Positions 5,449 to 28,038 of a DNA stretch of 64,000 nt are shown here, piece after piece. A program made the position numbers and the translations under genes. Origin of the DNA: a virus (taxonomy: Duplodnaviria > Caudoviricetes). The notes below the pieces were generated by a model that was given only the letters and a program-made list of their open reading frames with translations, ran no database searches and had not been told where the DNA came from. The stretch spans positions 64,001 through 128,000 of IMG/VR virus record IMGVR_UViG_3300011008_000004. One strand, given 5' to 3'. Positions within the stretch are counted from its first letter, which is position 1. Every line of letters begins with the position of its first letter.

Positions 5449-5599
5449 TTATACTATCTACCTCATTTAAATATTTGGTGATAATATAACGAATTTCAGC
5501 CGTTTCATTTCTAAAATCTTTTTCAGCTTCTATTTGTAATCTTTTATAAATAGACTCCGGGAGAGCGATTGTTTTTATAATTGTTTTTTCTTTTTCCAT
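5411..5599 (-). CDS. ribbon-helix-helix (Arc/CopG-like) DNA-binding protein
   Basis: KTIALPESIYKRLQIEAEKDFRNETAEIRYII pattern; preceded by GCTAAATTA motif. Confidence 0.7.
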   Translation of the reverse strand: MEKEKTIIKTIALPESIYKRLQIEAEKDFRNETAEIRYIITKYLNEVDSINVNNSVEIQSNL

Positions 5600-5641
5600 A
5601 CTATCACCATTATCTAATTTAGCTAGTAAATTTAATTATTT

Positions 5642-6934
5642 TTAATCTTTTTTAATCAATTCATATCTTTCAAAGTTGTTAACTAAATCTTTTGCTTTAA
5701 TTTCTACTTTGTCACCAGATACATTATCAACTACAAGAAGCACATGTTCAGGAGTAACTTCTAAAACACTACCATCTTCTGATTCTATCTTAATTAAATT
5801 AGGATACTCATTGTCTTTTATAAGTACACCAGTGATATCAGAATATTCTATCATATCTTTTTCAATATTATATGACATTGTTTCATAATCACTATAATCT
5901 TTACTGTGATTTATACAGAAAGTGCTAATTGGCATAGTAATAATTTTTAAAGATGTCTTATGTCTGATCGTTATCAACTCATTTCCCTTAAAACAACAGC
6001 TAGCTAATGCATCAGCTGAATCTGAATTATATAAAAAGAATGAATGACCTTTGGACCACATTTCAGCAGTGAAATCAGCCATTTCTTCATCTACATATTT
6101 ATGTGTATCTTTGTCCCATAGCAAATTCATTGTCTCAACAGGAAATGTGATAACATCATGGGTTCTTTCATTATTAAACCAATTCATAAACATTTTCTGT
6201 AATTCTTTTGTAGATTCCCAATTAGGTTCATCACCATCTGGGAATATAAAATCTTTAAATATTGAATTAAAATATCCCTTATCAAAATAAGCAATATTAG
6301 TAAATGGTGATTGATAACCTCTAGCGCCTGCAGGTTGATTTATACAGTAAACAAATTGTTGAAATAAATCTTCAATTTTATTTCTTAAAGTAGCTCTTCT
6401 ATTGCCAAAAGCTTCTACAGTTTCATCTAAATTTGTTATATAATCTTCACCGTAATCTACTCTTAAAAAGTGATCTAAATAAGGTAAAAATTCTGGAACA
6501 GCGACAGCCCCTGCAAATTGACCTGCTATTAAAAATACTAAATTTGTTAAACCACCTATAAATGAATCTGAATGTTTAGGCGGGCCACTTGTTCCGCCTA
6601 ACTTCTTTAAGCCATCTAATAAAAATGGATATAATGAAATAGCTACACAATATGGCATAATTGAACTCTCATCATGTGAATATATGATGTGATTTTTTAA
6701 ATCTAAATCAAACTGATCACACAACTCTTGGCCATATTTAATCAATAAATATTTCTTTGTTATAGCACGATTTACGTCTATAAAATCAGGCTTAGATAAT
6801 TCTGAAGACATTGTTGCTACATTCTTAGTAGTTACATTAGCATTAGCATCTACTTCAGAACCGGATGCAGCGTTACACGCTTGTTTATAATTCTCAATAA
6901 ATTTAAGTTTCTTATTTAAAGTCCTTTCATCCAT
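5642..6934 (-). CDS. nrdD: NrdD N-terminal half fused to split-intein N fragment (117 aa, from 5995)
   Basis: NAASGSEVDANANV, YSHDE, PYCVAIS, GARGYQSPFTN; ends ALASC/CFKGNE (block A) ...VTPEH (block B), then TAA. Confidence 0.93.
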   Translation of the reverse strand: MDERTLNKKLKFIENYKQACNAASGSEVDANANVTTKNVATMSSELSKPDFIDVNRAITKKYLLIKYGQELCDQFDLDLKNHIIYSHDESSIMPYCVAISLYPFLLDGLKKLGGTSGPPKHSDSFIGGLTNLVFLIAGQFAGAVAVPEFLPYLDHFLRVDYGEDYITNLDETVEAFGNRRATLRNKIEDLFQQFVYCINQPAGARGYQSPFTNIAYFDKGYFNSIFKDFIFPDGDEPNWESTKELQKMFMNWFNNERTHDVITFPVETMNLLWDKDTHKYVDEEMADFTAEMWSKGHSFFLYNSDSADALASCCFKGNELITIRHKTSLKIITMPISTFCINHSKDYSDYETMSYNIEKDMIEYSDITGVLIKDNEYPNLIKIESEDGSVLEVTPEHVLLVVDNVSGDKVEIKAKDLVNNFERYELIKKD

Positions 6935-7179: not shown

Positions 7180-7279
7180 AAAACCTCTCTTTTATAGATA
7201 AAACCGTCTATTGTTATAGATGGTTGTTACTATACAACTTCTAGCAATCTTAAATTTCTTGTGTTTAATTTAGCTCGTT

Positions 7280-7400
7280 TAAGACGATATAGACTATCCG
7301 TGAACTACCGATAGCTGAAGCAATCGGCTTCCTGCTCAATGCAACCACTGTTGCAAGTATCAACAGGCTAACCCCGTAGTCCCTACGGTTTTTATAATTT
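7280..7400 (-). ncRNA. TnpB omegaRNA (right-end scaffold) with guide GGATAGTCTATATCGTCTTA
   Basis: Stacked hairpins downstream of tnpB stop ending in TTCAC; flanking 20 nt is the predicted guide. Confidence 0.7.
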
Positions 7401-8783
7401 TTATACTTTATTGATTATACAGAAGTCTAAGTCCTTCATTCAGAATATTTATTGCCGCATTCTGATCTCTATTATGATGTGTTCCGCAATCTGGACAAGT
7501 CCATTCTCTTATAGAAAGAGAATTTACAATATCTTTGTGATAACAACCACATTCAGAACAAACAATGGTTGTAGGAGTAAATCTTCCTATTTTAACTAAT
7601 TGTTTTCCTTGAGATTCTAATTTCTGTTGAAGTCTTGTTCTAAAATAACCAAAAGCATTATCCATAGTTGATTTTCCTAGTCTTAGTGCTTGAGATTGAG
7701 CTTTCATATCAATATCTTCAATACAAATTATATCATATTTCTCTGCAAGTTTCTTAGATTCTTTTTCAATGAAATCTTTTCTTTGATTAGTTATTTGTTC
7801 ATGAATTTTTGCAACTTTAATCTTTTGTTTTTCATAGTTATTTGAGTACAATTTCATATGAGATAACTTACGTTGTTCTTTAGCTAATTTTGGTTGAGAT
7901 TTCTTGAATAATTTTACAAACCCCTCAGGTTTATTGTTTTGGCTATCAACATAAAACTCTGGAGCGCTGTAATCTAATCCAACTGCTTTATTTTTGTCTA
8001 ATTTTATTTCAGGTATTTCATACTCATATTCAGCAAGAATACTTATGAAATATTTACCTGAGTTTGTTTGAGAAATGGTTGCTGATTTTATAATGTAATC
8101 TTGCGGAATGAATCTATGTTCAACAAATTTAATAGGTCCAAGTTTGGGAAGCTGGATTCTATTATTAGAGATAATTCTTATTGAATTGTTTACACAATTA
8201 GTAGTATAAGATTTTTTATCAAATTTTTTCGATTTGAATTTAGGAAATCCATTTTTAATATTTCTAAAGAAATTATTATAAGCTGTTTGTAAATGCATTT
8301 GCTCATTAGCTAAAGCTAAAGAATCAACTTCTTTTAACCAATCGAATTCTTCTTTGTATTGAGCAGGTGTGTTTTTGAGATTAACCTTATCTTTCTTATA
8401 AGCCTCAATTTTATCAGCTAACATCTTATTGTAGATAAATCTACAGCAGCCAAATGTTTTTTGTAGTAATATTTCTTGCTCTTTATTTGGATACAGGCGA
8501 TATTTGAAACATTTATTCATGAACAACTTCCTTACTAAAATAAAAATAGCTTATTTGATTGGCGGATCAAATAAGCTATAATTACTCTATATCAAACTAT
8601 TGCTAGTTTAATAACATTATAATATACAATATTGATTCCGCCAAATCAACAATAATCATTTCTGATTACAGATAATTTAGCTAATAAAATACATAGAAAA
8701 ATACCGAAATTCAAAGAATATTTCAAATCATCTAAAGCAATTCATCCGATGACTGAAGTCAAAGGATTTCCTGCTGAGTTAGG
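7300..8783 (-). mobile_element. IS200/IS605-family (IS1341-like, tnpB-only) element
   Basis: tnpB; subterminal hairpins at both ends; right end ...GTAGTTCAC; left flank TTTAA (candidate TAM); boundaries inferred. Confidence 0.8.
7408..8526 (-). CDS. tnpB: RNA-guided endonuclease TnpB
   Basis: FKYRLYPNKEQ HTH_OrfB start; RuvC D (GLDY), E (IEDI), D (RDQNAA) intact; CSECG/CPDCG zinc ribbon. Confidence 0.95.
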   Translation of the reverse strand: MFMNKCFKYRLYPNKEQEILLQKTFGCCRFIYNKMLADKIEAYKKDKVNLKNTPAQYKEEFDWLKEVDSLALANEQMHLQTAYNNFFRNIKNGFPKFKSKKFDKKSYTTNCVNNSIRIISNNRIQLPKLGPIKFVEHRFIPQDYIIKSATISQTNSGKYFISILAEYEYEIPEIKLDKNKAVGLDYSAPEFYVDSQNNKPEGFVKLFKKSQPKLAKEQRKLSHMKLYSNNYEKQKIKVAKIHEQITNQRKDFIEKESKKLAEKYDIICIEDIDMKAQSQALRLGKSTMDNAFGYFRTRLQQKLESQGKQLVKIGRFTPTTIVCSECGCYHKDIVNSLSIREWTCPDCGTHHNRDQNAAINILNEGLRLLYNQ

Positions 8784-10073
8784 TTAAATTTCATACATTT
8801 TTACTGGACAATCTTTTAAAATATCTACAATATCGTCATACAATAAAATTGGTTGTTCTATCAATTTATCTTTAATAATTTCTAACAACTTTCTATTATT
8901 TTTTAATATTTTAGTAGCTTTATTGTAGAATCTATGAATCTGTCTAACAACTTCATCATCTATTCGTTTGCCACGACCAAAATCATTTCTTCCAGTAGCT
9001 CTCATATATTTAAAGCCATTAACACCTAAAGCACCAATAGCTAAATCCATATTATTTTTTAAATCTTTCAGATCTGAGAATGTACCTAAATCTATATCTT
9101 TAAATATAAGTTCAGTAGCAGCTTTACCACCTAAATCTATAATACAATTAGTAGCATAATCTTTATAGCTATAATTACATATTAAATTTTCTTCTCTCCA
9201 GCCATCACCTTTTAATGTAAAACCTCCAATATTACCACTAACTACATTAGATATCATATCTACTTCGCCACCTAAAGCTAATGCAACTATTGCATGACCA
9301 GCTTCATGATAGGCTGTTCTAAGCTTAGATTCTGAAGTAGCTTCACCATATGTCTCTCTAGTTCCTAAGACACCATGTAATAAAGCCTCTTTAATATCTT
9401 CTTTAGTAATGTATTGTCTTTTAGCGAAGCCTGCACTTAAACTTGCTTCAGATATAACATTCTTTAATTCAGCGCAACTTCTATTGCGCATAATTCTAGC
9501 AATTAAATCTGCTGGAACATCTAACTTATATGATGTGTTACTTAAATAATAATTTATAATAGCTAAAGCATCTGCATTATTAGGCATATCGAAATGCATA
9601 TGTCTACCTAATCTACCTGCTCTTTTTAAACTATAAGGTAATACGTCTATGTCATTAGCTGTAGCAACTACAAACACATCTTGATCCTGTAAATTATCCA
9701 AAATACTCTGAATAACGATAAATTCTTCATCATTATAGCGATCTTCATCACTTTCAGCGAATTTATCTAAATCATCTAATAATACAATTGAGGGCTGATT
9801 CTTTATAGCTTCTTCAAATGTAGCAGTTATATACTCTATAAACTTCTCATCTGGTTTATCTTTTCTAATAATATAACTATTACGTTTAGATTCATATAAA
9901 AGTGATTCAGCGGCTAGTGTTTTGCCCAAACCAGGTTTGCCATAGATTAAAATAGCTTTTGGTAAATCTACACAGTATTTCTTATATTTTGAAGTATGTT
10001 TCAACATATCAGCTATGCACCTTAAGTCTTTCTTAAAACTTTCATAGCCAATAATTCTATCAAATTTATCCAT
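8784..10073 (-). CDS. FtsH-like AAA+ ATPase with M41 peptidase domain, no transmembrane segment
   Basis: GKPGLGKT Walker A, LLDDLD Walker B, RAGRL SRH, TAYHEAGH zinc motif. Confidence 0.88.
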   Translation of the reverse strand: MDKFDRIIGYESFKKDLRCIADMLKHTSKYKKYCVDLPKAILIYGKPGLGKTLAAESLLYESKRNSYIIRKDKPDEKFIEYITATFEEAIKNQPSIVLLDDLDKFAESDEDRYNDEEFIVIQSILDNLQDQDVFVVATANDIDVLPYSLKRAGRLGRHMHFDMPNNADALAIINYYLSNTSYKLDVPADLIARIMRNRSCAELKNVISEASLSAGFAKRQYITKEDIKEALLHGVLGTRETYGEATSESKLRTAYHEAGHAIVALALGGEVDMISNVVSGNIGGFTLKGDGWREENLICNYSYKDYATNCIIDLGGKAATELIFKDIDLGTFSDLKDLKNNMDLAIGALGVNGFKYMRATGRNDFGRGKRIDDEVVRQIHRFYNKATKILKNNRKLLEIIKDKLIEQPILLYDDIVDILKDCPVKMYEI

Positions 10074-25318: not shown

Positions 25319-25669
25319 TTAATTTTCATAAAATTTACCTTTTATATGTATTGCTTTACTTAAATCATATGGGATATTAGCATCTAATGCAAACTCTGGA
25401 AATGGTTCTATTCTATATTCTATAAAATGCTCTCGTAATAATTTCTTTATCATTTTAACAACAACTTTTGGAGATGCGTCCTATTTAGTAGATCTATCTA
25501 AAAAGAACCACTAACCTGTAGTTAAAATCATCATACTAATATTTTTATTAATTATAACTGCATATAGCATTATATTGTCATCAGACACAAATAATGGCGC
25601 ATACTACACTAACCAATTCACAGCGTTATCAGTTAGACGTAATTCTTCATACTAATTTATCTTTTTCAT
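25319..25669 (-). CDS. TAG-recoded hypothetical protein
   Basis: 116 codons open with 4 in-frame TAG; ATG overlaps upstream TGA; ends TAA. Confidence 0.65.
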
Positions 25670-25977
25670 AAATCCTTTACATATGGATCTAAGAAATTCT
25701 TTATAGTTTCAGCATGACATCTCTTAGGCGCACACCAACAAAACAATCTTAATCTCCCATAAGCCTTATAAATTAAATATAGCCTTCTAAGTTCATCAAT
25801 GAACTCGTCTTCATCTTTTATTCGTTTATTGAAATATTCTATATACTTATCACAAACATCATCTCTAAATGATTCATCCTTCATATAAAAAGGATTTCCT
25901 AAAACTGATTCACGATCAACTCTAATGTCAAATGGTTGAGATGGTTTTTCGAAATGCATATTTTTAATTTCAATCAT
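25666..25977 (-). CDS. DUF4326-family protein
   Basis: VDRESVLGNPF...LFCWCAPKRCHAE. Confidence 0.85.
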   Translation of the reverse strand: MIEIKNMHFEKPSQPFDIRVDRESVLGNPFYMKDESFRDDVCDKYIEYFNKRIKDEDEFIDELRRLYLIYKAYGRLRLFCWCAPKRCHAETIKNFLDPYVKDL

Positions 25978-26049
25978 AATTATTTATACAAAAACAAAAG
26001 ACTATCTAAAAGATAGTCTTTATCACAATTAAATTACCGTTGAAAAATA

Positions 26050-26517
26050 TTATTGAAACAATTTAAATGGATTGAATGTAAACATGTCATTCAACATGCT
26101 ATTCATCTCATCGACAATGTTGTCATATTCGCGCTTCGCTTCATCACCGGTGATGTATCTAACATAAGGCTTGTTAAATTTATCATTATATTCTACCATA
26201 GCATTACGCTTATCAGTAGCGGCCTTATCAACATTGTCCCCAGCTTCTTTAAGTATCTCATTAGCTCTTGCGTTAGCTTCTTCGATAATCTTACGTGCTT
26301 CGGCTTTTGCTTCATTATACGCTTCAACTGCTAAGTTGTAAGCATCTTTAGCTGCATCAATTTTGTCAGCCAGTTCTTTACGCTCTTTACTGATTTCAGC
26401 CTTTTTAATTTCTTCAGCCATGCGTTTTTCTTCTTGTGCTTTGTCAAATGCTTTATCAGCTTCTTTGCACTTTTCTACTGTGCTATATTCTTTTCCGTCT
26501 TTACCTATAATTTGCAT
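26050..26517 (-). CDS. coiled-coil hypothetical protein
   Basis: 155 aa, AGGAG SD. Confidence 0.65.
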   Translation of the reverse strand: MQIIGKDGKEYSTVEKCKEADKAFDKAQEEKRMAEEIKKAEISKERKELADKIDAAKDAYNLAVEAYNEAKAEARKIIEEANARANEILKEAGDNVDKAATDKRNAMVEYNDKFNKPYVRYITGDEAKREYDNIVDEMNSMLNDMFTFNPFKLFQ

Positions 26518-26583
26518 CTTAATCTCCTTTTCTTGAACTCCTTACCTAATAGGACTTATAGTTCAACCATATCAGATTTTATT

Positions 26584-26756
26584 GTGAACTACTTATTACT
26601 AAAGTAATAAGCTTCCTGCTCAAGTGTGCTATTGCACACAGTATCAACAAGCTATCCCTCGAGTTCCTCAAGTTAGTTTATTTAATTACCTTAATCGATA
26701 AAAGGTAAATTAAATTTTTTAACCTATGACTAAAGTCAAAGGTTATCTTTTCTAGG
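26584..26756 (-). mobile_element. miniature non-autonomous IS200/IS605 derivative (orphan omegaRNA scaffold)
   Basis: Collinear with both ends of the 7300-8783 element (GTGAACTAC...GCTTCCTGCTCAA...AGTATCAACA.GCTA; ATGACT.AAGTCAAAGG) with compensatory stem changes, no ORF. Confidence 0.8.
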
Positions 26757-26780
26757 TTATATGTTAACGGTAATTTAATT

Positions 26781-27980
26781 TTAATGTAAAATAATTCTAC
26801 ATATAGCTTCTATAACATTCTCTTTAGAAACTATAATTAAATTTTGACTAGGTGTTGATGTCAATCTTAAATCTTTAGCATATGTATCAGTTCCCATTAA
26901 ACTTGAACATGAACATACAACTGTACGATTCTTCTCATCTCCACTAAAGTGATGCAAATGAGCTGTACACAATAAATCCCAATGCTGTTCAGTCATCATT
27001 GATAATTTATCTACAGCAGTTACATGTGAGTCTTTATCGCCATGAACACCTAAAATCTTATGACCTAAAACTTCAAATGCGCAAATATCATCACCGTAGA
27101 AATTTTCGTTTATATTAACATCACAATCTTTTAATCTTTGCTCTAAATACCAAGGTGTCAATCTTTGCAATGTTTCAACAGCTAAACTTGCCTCTTTATC
27201 TGGTTCTAATCTAGAGTGATTATCTATAGTACTATAATATTCTACTTTTACATATTTAGACAAGTTATAAAGTAAATCAGCTAATATCTCTGTTACTTCC
27301 ATTATCTGCGTAATAACATCACATCTACTTTCAAGCTGAATGGTTTTATGAATTCTTCCAGCAATTAAGTCTGATAAATCTACTACATATAACTTCTTAA
27401 TGTTATAAAATTGTAATCTTTCAACTACTTTCTTAAATAATTCAGCTACACGTTTCTTACAGATTTCTGGACTATATTCATTTATAAAATTCTTAAAGAC
27501 TAAGCCATAGTGCCAATCACCTATCTCTAAAATAGCTTCATATTTAGCGTTATCTATATTTAAGCCTTCAACTATTTTATTAGGAATGTAAGGTTTTTCT
27601 TTAGCAGCAGCAATAGCAGCTTCTACTGCTATGTCTCTAATAGTTTCTTTACGTGCTAAATCTCTAATATATTTTCTATTAGCATTCGCTTCATCTCTAA
27701 ATTTAACACGTTCTTTTTGAAGATTTACTAATTCTTCTCTAATATCACTAACGTCATCGCAATAAACGCTAGATAATGCATTTAGTTTATCACAATTATG
27801 AATTCTGTAATATTCTTCAGAGTAATCTAAACCAAATGCTTCATTTACTAGATTCTTTATATTTGACCAAGTAAGTTTATTGTCATCACTTTTAACTTTA
27901 ACTAAATGGTCTATAAATTCAGAGACTGACATTCCTTCAGCTTTATCTAATAAATTGTCATAAAATTCTTTATCTATCAT
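26781..27980 (-). CDS. phage metallophosphoesterase/nuclease with N-terminal helical extension
   Basis: GDWHYG, SDLIAG, DNHSR, HGD, AHLHH. Confidence 0.82.
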   Translation of the reverse strand: MIDKEFYDNLLDKAEGMSVSEFIDHLVKVKSDDNKLTWSNIKNLVNEAFGLDYSEEYYRIHNCDKLNALSSVYCDDVSDIREELVNLQKERVKFRDEANANRKYIRDLARKETIRDIAVEAAIAAAKEKPYIPNKIVEGLNIDNAKYEAILEIGDWHYGLVFKNFINEYSPEICKKRVAELFKKVVERLQFYNIKKLYVVDLSDLIAGRIHKTIQLESRCDVITQIMEVTEILADLLYNLSKYVKVEYYSTIDNHSRLEPDKEASLAVETLQRLTPWYLEQRLKDCDVNINENFYGDDICAFEVLGHKILGVHGDKDSHVTAVDKLSMMTEQHWDLLCTAHLHHFSGDEKNRTVVCSCSSLMGTDTYAKDLRLTSTPSQNLIIVSKENVIEAICRIILH

Positions 27981-28038
27981 TTAAGCCTCCACACCATAAC
28001 TAATTTAGCAGTCACGATGTTAATTGAAAACACTAGAC

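Follow-up and report, generated by a model that had tools for sequence, protein, structure and literature searches.

Element B and its place in the phage genome

A spacer of 263 nt separates two minus-strand genes of a gut phage, whose record of 214,257 bp has direct terminal repeats and a G+C content of 29.7%. The window, that is, the whole stretch of 64,000 nt analysed here, comprises bases 64001–128000 of this genome, and positions below are those of the window unless the genome is named. On the upstream side of the spacer lies a gene of 399 aa (26781–27980), on the downstream side a gene of 155 aa (26050–26517), and between them, oriented like all the genes around it, is element B, a 173-nt gene-less mini-element of the IS605 family (26584–26756, minus strand). 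Its left end is located 20 nt after the stop codon of the former gene, and its right end, 66 nt before the start of the latter. The only frames overlapping the element are chance ORFs of 25–30 aa, and thus no protein-coding gene is present inside.

Read along the minus strand, B starts directly after TATAA (26757–26761), identified as the TAM since it is common to B and to element C described below and forms the junction in the empty allele; the first bases of the element are CCTAGAAAAG. The left end (26721–26756, minus strand), recognized from its identity to the left ends of elements A and C and from its fold, contains a subterminal hairpin AACCT-TTGAC / GTCA-AGGTT. It is followed by a filler of 45 nt with an AT-rich 13-bp hairpin (26680–26715, minus strand), seen in the fold and, according to the alignment, absent from A and C. 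The right end (26584–26681, minus strand) is a complete omegaRNA scaffold of approximately 98 nt, with three stem-loops, an enclosing helix CUUG..CAGG and the terminus GTAGTTCAC, which contains the last bases of the element at 26584. The scaffold is predicted to fold in the same way as those of A and C (z –3.0). Directly 3' of GTAGTTCAC begins the guide-forming 20-nt flank AATAAAATCTGATATGGTTG (26564–26583, minus strand). This flank overlaps the 5' arm of a hairpin TTGAACT..AGTTCAA (26526–26567, minus strand) located ahead of the ribosome-binding site of the 155-aa gene; in a 69%-related phage contig (L097) the hairpin is retained via compensatory changes (TTGAGTT..AACTCAA).

Database searches with the locus yielded little. 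No Rfam family was matched in the whole window at the gathering thresholds, and a search of INPHARED phages with the region 25600–28000 produced a single 66-nt match at chance level in a Yersinia phage. The right flank of B had no exact match in IMG/VR and JGI metagenomes, and the related-locus search in IMG/VR with the 399-aa neighbour protein gave no match. The exact search with the private terminal hairpin of B revealed no other occurrence, and hence no sign of a proliferating B lineage.

Related elements in the phage and in other genomes

Element A (7300–8783, minus strand) is a tnpB-only element of the IS605 family, whose parts, all on the minus strand, are the TAM TTTAA (8784–8788), tnpB (7408–8526), an omegaRNA scaffold (7300–7397) and a guide flank (7280–7299). 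Its product, TnpB-A, is intact (372 aa), contains the Pfam domains HTH_OrfB_IS605, OrfB_IS605 and TNB, has GLD, IED and RDxN at the RuvC positions, and aligns end to end with the ISDra2 TnpB structures (E 4e-66; PDB 8bf8, 8ex9, 8h1j). Beside A, an NrdD-like gene (5642–6934, minus strand) has a match to an intein-splicing domain, which at 26 bits is below the Pfam cut-off of 35.8; this match points to a neighbourhood rich in selfish elements.

A second tnpB element, C, was found by whole-genome BLAST with B and is located outside the window, at 195,800–197,296 of the genome (L094:8600–10096, minus strand), following the TAM TATAA. Its tnpB is 57% identical to that of A and is frameshifted in a T6 run, yielding ORFs of 260 and 94 aa; the split is identical in two other assemblies (L100, L101), which possibly share their source sample with the window and so are not counted as independent. 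At the conserved Gln of the YPxxEQ motif tnpB-C has an in-frame TAG, probably read as Gln, as the phage appears to use TAG as a sense codon. We considered this TAG as a nonsense mutation and rejected this possibility, the phage having proved TAG-recoded; the frameshift stands. Two tRNAs with anticodon CTA are encoded in the genome (L087:2606–2680 and L092:15536–15633, at approximately 2.6 kb and 163.1 kb). With TAG as sense, the coverage by stop-to-stop ORFs increases from 0.77 to 0.90, in some 10-kb bins from 0.44 to 0.87 or from 0.63 to 1.0, and the related contig L097 can be translated only with TAG as Q. No Y1_Tnp (tnpA) match was found in the 214-kb phage.

Sequence comparison places B nearer to C than to A, in the same sub-lineage as C. 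The right-end 98 nt of B are about 70% identical to those of A, and the left-end 50 nt, about 65%, compared to 84% identity between the left ends of B and C. Both B and C have the stem GTGTGC..GCACAC and are preceded by TATAA, while A is preceded by TTTAA, with the 5' segments of the left ends differing accordingly.

The search for related loci with TnpB-A produced only two, and hence the DNA pattern of the right end was used instead. Exact-pattern scanning with the conserved right-end core yielded 24 loci in IMG/VR and 50 in genomes, of which approximately 45 are true members of the family, the remainder being GC-rich chance matches. The family is found in Methanolobus, Desulfosporosinus, Clostridia, Anaerolineales-free lineages and phage (IMG/VR) contigs, and one member (L045) is a classic unit of Y1 tnpA and tnpB. 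An alignment and a covariance model, R1, were built from 34 foreign members, with no sequence from the present phage genome included. Their consensus fold contains four helices, in which 97% of the cells pair across the 34 relatives, and shifting the helix partners by 1–3 columns decreases the pairing to 26–58%. Double-sided changes number 120, compared to 33 in shuffles, and none of 500 shuffles reaches 120. All 38 distinct terminal segments fold into hairpins of 6–10 bp.

When applied to the whole 214-kb genome, R1 has exactly three matches, each spanning the full model: A with 101.1 bits, C with 95.3 and B with 91.8 (E 1.2e-20, model positions 1–101 in B). This confirms the observation of a second scaffold in the window and means that the phage contains no further copies. 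In A the model starts 10 nt past the tnpB stop codon, so the conserved scaffold of the family is outside the ORF, and B contains the whole of it.

These results bear on most of what the first-pass annotation had proposed for the locus. That B matches both ends of the tnpB element and contains no ORF is borne out by the identities, the R1 score and the short chance frames given above, as is its description as an orphan omegaRNA scaffold followed by a guide-forming flank of its own, the R1 match being of full length and AATAAAATCTGATATGGTTG directly 3' of it. Both compensatory stems named there are real, including TGCAAC..GTTGCA in A versus GTGTGC..GCACAC in B, and a third covarying stem can be added (CCGTAG..CTACGG in A, CTTGAG..CTCGAG in B). 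As GTGTGC..GCACAC is also present in C, however, that change was inherited and is not private to B, and all the compensatory changes may predate the internal deletion that made B. Selection on the structure, suggested earlier for the orphan, is thus proven for the family, but not for B itself. The suggested check for further copies and for a tnpA retrieved C, nothing beyond A, B and C, and no tnpA in the phage; A is therefore the only tnpB in the window, as stated, but not in the genome, where C carries a second one.

Other gene-less copies of the family are also observed, on phage contigs (the L016/L033/L034 type, L024, L031 and L015) and in a MAG (L048). In those with a placeable left end (the L016/L033/L034, L024 and L031 types and L048), the deletion stops 5–45 nt upstream of the first stem, and so the complete three-stem block is retained. 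The copies on phage contigs (e.g., L016:2738–2890, L034:5720–5869, L024:1360–1513 and 5590–5744) are about 150 nt long, with the three stems of the right end following straight upon the left-end hairpin; the insertion site of several is a TTTAA located a few bases past a stop codon, and L024 contains two copies in 5.9 kb, with no tnpB. One gene-less copy (L081) has no middle stem, and four members from IMG/VR phage contigs (L021, L022, L023, L036) have an insertion of approximately 25 nt in the middle stem-loop.

Allelic states and transcription context of B

Comparison of public runs over the region 25900–27400 demonstrated that the spacer exists both with and without B. In a 667-nt contig from a horse metagenome (run X2), which is 99.5% identical to the window and has three mismatches, none of them near the site, 26583 is followed immediately by 26757. 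The shorter arm of the contig measures 122 nt, and the two arms have no letters in common at the joint. This joint fixes the limits of the element to the base and means that target-site duplication is absent; the limits 26584–26756 given in the first-pass annotation are exactly the 173 nt skipped by the contig. The empty allele consists of TATAA followed by the unchanged 20-nt match to the guide, no variant being listed in 26564–26583, so that a near-identical phage carries a natural, perfect TAM and target. The earlier suggestion to look for an empty site preceded by TATAA or GTTAA has hence been answered in favour of TATAA. In the 69%-related phage contig the homologous spacer is also uninterrupted, leading from the stop codon through about 20 nt and ACATAATAAATAAAAAATCTAATATGGTTGAG to the ribosome-binding site of the gene downstream.

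The filled allele is present in the record of the window, in a 206-kb ENA assembly (L099), which may derive from the same sample and so is not an independent observation, and in runs X1 and X3. One more contig (L096), with the neighbour gene 99% identical, stops 5 nt past the stop codon, short of B, and does not cover the allele state. The filled allele of X3 is diverged and has one, pair-preserving, change in 73 nt of the scaffold compared to five changes in 75 nt outside it, although these counts are small. In the same run, at least three contigs match the right end of B and then continue into unrelated flanks (loose ends at 26584), so that similar right ends are located at other sites in that metagenome. 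B is a presence/absence polymorphism among near-identical phages and is not fixed in the population. As excision of IS200/IS605 elements is scarless, the polymorphism is compatible both with the recent arrival of B and with its loss by excision.

The scan for sigma-70-type promoters around B did not exceed shuffles, and no terminator-like site was found in 26450–26900. A promoter-like motif, GCTAAATTA, occurs in nine copies, all on the minus strand, compared to 2.5 expected, and one of them (28001–28009, minus strand) is located 21 nt upstream of the 399-aa gene preceding B, which makes it a possible source of read-through into the element. Other copies are at 8673–8681, within A and upstream of tnpB, at 7266–7274 and at six further sites. 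The motif also precedes tnpB in C and in the closest foreign relative (L077), and thus the IS seems to carry a promoter motif of the phage type. B itself has no such motif, unlike A and C. Longer transcripts are known to be processed into omegaRNA by TnpB (PMC10278001). In metatranscriptome run X9 contigs cover the flanking genes only and have no bearing, either way, on the transcription of B.

Origin of B and the possible use of its RNA

B is almost certainly a PATE, that is, a non-autonomous, internally deleted derivative of an IS605-family tnpB element, as it is gene-less, has both IS605-type ends, is inserted after a short motif with no duplication, and depends on outside proteins. Taken as a whole, the best explanation, with a probability of roughly 0.7, combines this origin with mobility in trans, transcription by read-through and homing. 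B would move, or would have moved, by means of a Y1 TnpA acting in trans and coming presumably from the host or a co-resident element; we presume such a transposase because the family includes elements with both tnpA and tnpB. The RNA would be supplied by read-through from the upstream 399-aa gene, and the scaffold with its 3' flank would be loaded onto the intact TnpB-A. The complex could then cut co-infecting genomes carrying the empty allele, TATAA and target, whereupon recombinational repair, with the filled genome as donor, would insert a copy of B (homing or retention, as in Meers et al., 2023).

The steps from loading onwards are the more fragile part of this explanation, and that loading onto TnpB-A, cutting of empty alleles and copying-in actually happen seems to us somewhat doubtful. 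In their favour are the undamaged scaffold of B, the intact TnpB 18–19 kb away, and the perfect TAM and target allele in circulation. On the other hand, TnpB-A shares no more than 57% identity with the closest TnpB, that of C, whose gene is frameshifted; an own promoter is missing from B, and tnpA, from the phage. Besides, as A follows TTTAA, and B and C follow TATAA, TnpB-A may have another TAM preference and may not accept the target of B. The earlier proposal that one TnpB uses guides in trans is therefore supported in part, as regards the orphan scaffold and the empty allele, and is weakened by the affiliation of B with the sub-lineage of C, by the TATAA versus TTTAA difference and by the lack of the promoter motif in B.

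A rival explanation is that of an inert passenger, a PATE brought by a host TnpA that simply persists, its RNA being a part of a polycistronic transcript, unbound by TnpB or unproductive with it, and the polymorphism reflecting only insertion or excision by TnpA. We consider such an outcome about evenly balanced, since the TAM of B disagrees with that of the sole intact TnpB, the tnpB of the cognate lineage is broken, no own promoter is present, B is single-copy and has no relatives with its hairpin, and the covariation is inherited from the family. Against this explanation, the scaffold of B is undamaged, scoring 91.8 bits compared to 95–101 for the tnpB-linked copies. TnpA should require the terminal hairpin only, as established for IS608, and yet independent PATEs of the family almost always retain all three stems; the changes in the X3 allele, few as they are, also cluster outside the scaffold.

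At the other extreme, the locus could be a part of an evolved weapon, or marker-exclusion system, in which dispersed guide cassettes arm one TnpB against competing relatives. Three guide-forming right ends (A, B and C) are indeed present with one intact TnpB, a perfect empty-allele target occurs in nature, tnpB has a phage promoter-like motif, and PATEs of the same family are found on other phage contigs. Still, there are just two extra guides, each explicable by ordinary decay of an IS, no guide is directed at anything but the empty site of its own element, which is the rule for IS605 elements, and B is not fixed in the population, which makes such a system improbable; the term "dispersed guide cassettes", used in the first-pass annotation, overstates what is one PATE and one decayed element. 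Even less probable, and in our opinion hardly to be expected, is the co-option of B for a cis role at the RNA level, for instance in processing, insulation or termination, between the genes of 399 and 155 aa. Its position in the spacer, 20 nt past a stop codon and 66 nt ahead of the next start, and its several stable hairpins would fit this role, but near-identical phages manage with no B, no terminator-like site is detected in 26450–26900, and its structure is the one common to the transposon family rather than specific for the locus.

The closest known elements, the PATEs of haloarchaea (PMC3119063) and Geobacillus stearothermophilus (PMC10055086), are also short and gene-less, share both ends with tnpB/tnpA-bearing elements, are inserted after a short motif with no duplication, and have an omegaRNA at the right end, with TnpA and TnpB acting in trans. 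PATE-like elements are present among the 47 IS605-type elements of G. stearothermophilus, and according to the same study (Meers et al., 2023) it is common for PATEs to carry omegaRNAs on which the TnpB of another IS acts in trans. B differs from them in residing in a lytic-type, TAG-recoded phage of 214 kb that has no tnpA, in that the sole intact TnpB of the genome comes from a sister sub-lineage whose TAM is different, and in that a natural empty allele is documented. Similarly to ISDra2 (PMC8612924), to whose TnpB the TnpB-A protein aligns over the full length, the guide is taken from the DNA that directly follows the right end, and the TAM with the rejoined empty site makes up the target. 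The scaffold of the B family (approximately 100 nt, three stems), known here from sequence analysis, is, however, wholly downstream of the tnpB stop codon, and the TAM of ISDra2 is TTGAT, compared to T(T/A)TAA in the B family.

The proposed outcome also resembles that of the free-standing homing endonucleases Seg and Mob of T-even phages (PMC13565253), where a phage nuclease cuts the insert-less allele of a co-infecting phage and repair copies the insert, but recognition here would be by an RNA guide. As the nuclease gene in A is 18–19 kb away from B, A would not be co-converted with B, unlike in the case of Seg and Mob. A 2026 review lists "transposon non-restorative homing" into co-infecting phages or plasmids (Table 1 in PMC13565253). 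In cyanophage A-1(L), a tnpB-only IS copy is missing from close relatives, its role is not known, and homing has been suggested (bioRxiv 10.64898/2026.02.14.705889); an orphan guide element was not reported there. Our literature search found no paper in which a phage carries an omegaRNA-bearing PATE and the empty allele is described as well. As orphan PATEs are known from bacteria, the present case extends a known kind of element to a phage and is not a new kind.

From the practical point of view, the family provides a compact omegaRNA scaffold (about 100 nt) that is wholly outside the tnpB ORF and is accompanied by rich covariation data. For the role of TnpB inside phage genomes, the locus offers a clean natural test, having one intact TnpB, three guide-forming right ends and an exact empty site in the wild. 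If the TAM mismatch bars the use of the RNA, the locus shows how fast orphan guides become useless after the decay of their own nuclease. If TnpB-A does use the RNA of the PATE, homing alone could suffice for gene-less elements to pass from one co-infecting phage to another. One may speculate further, although we think it unlikely, that in TAG-recoded gut jumbo phages a single phage-expressed TnpB serves its own guide and those of PATEs and decayed sisters, the PATEs spreading by RNA-guided homing with no phage transposase. If true, this would be an RNA-programmed counterpart of marker exclusion in T4, in which the nuclease and the elements driven by it are unlinked.
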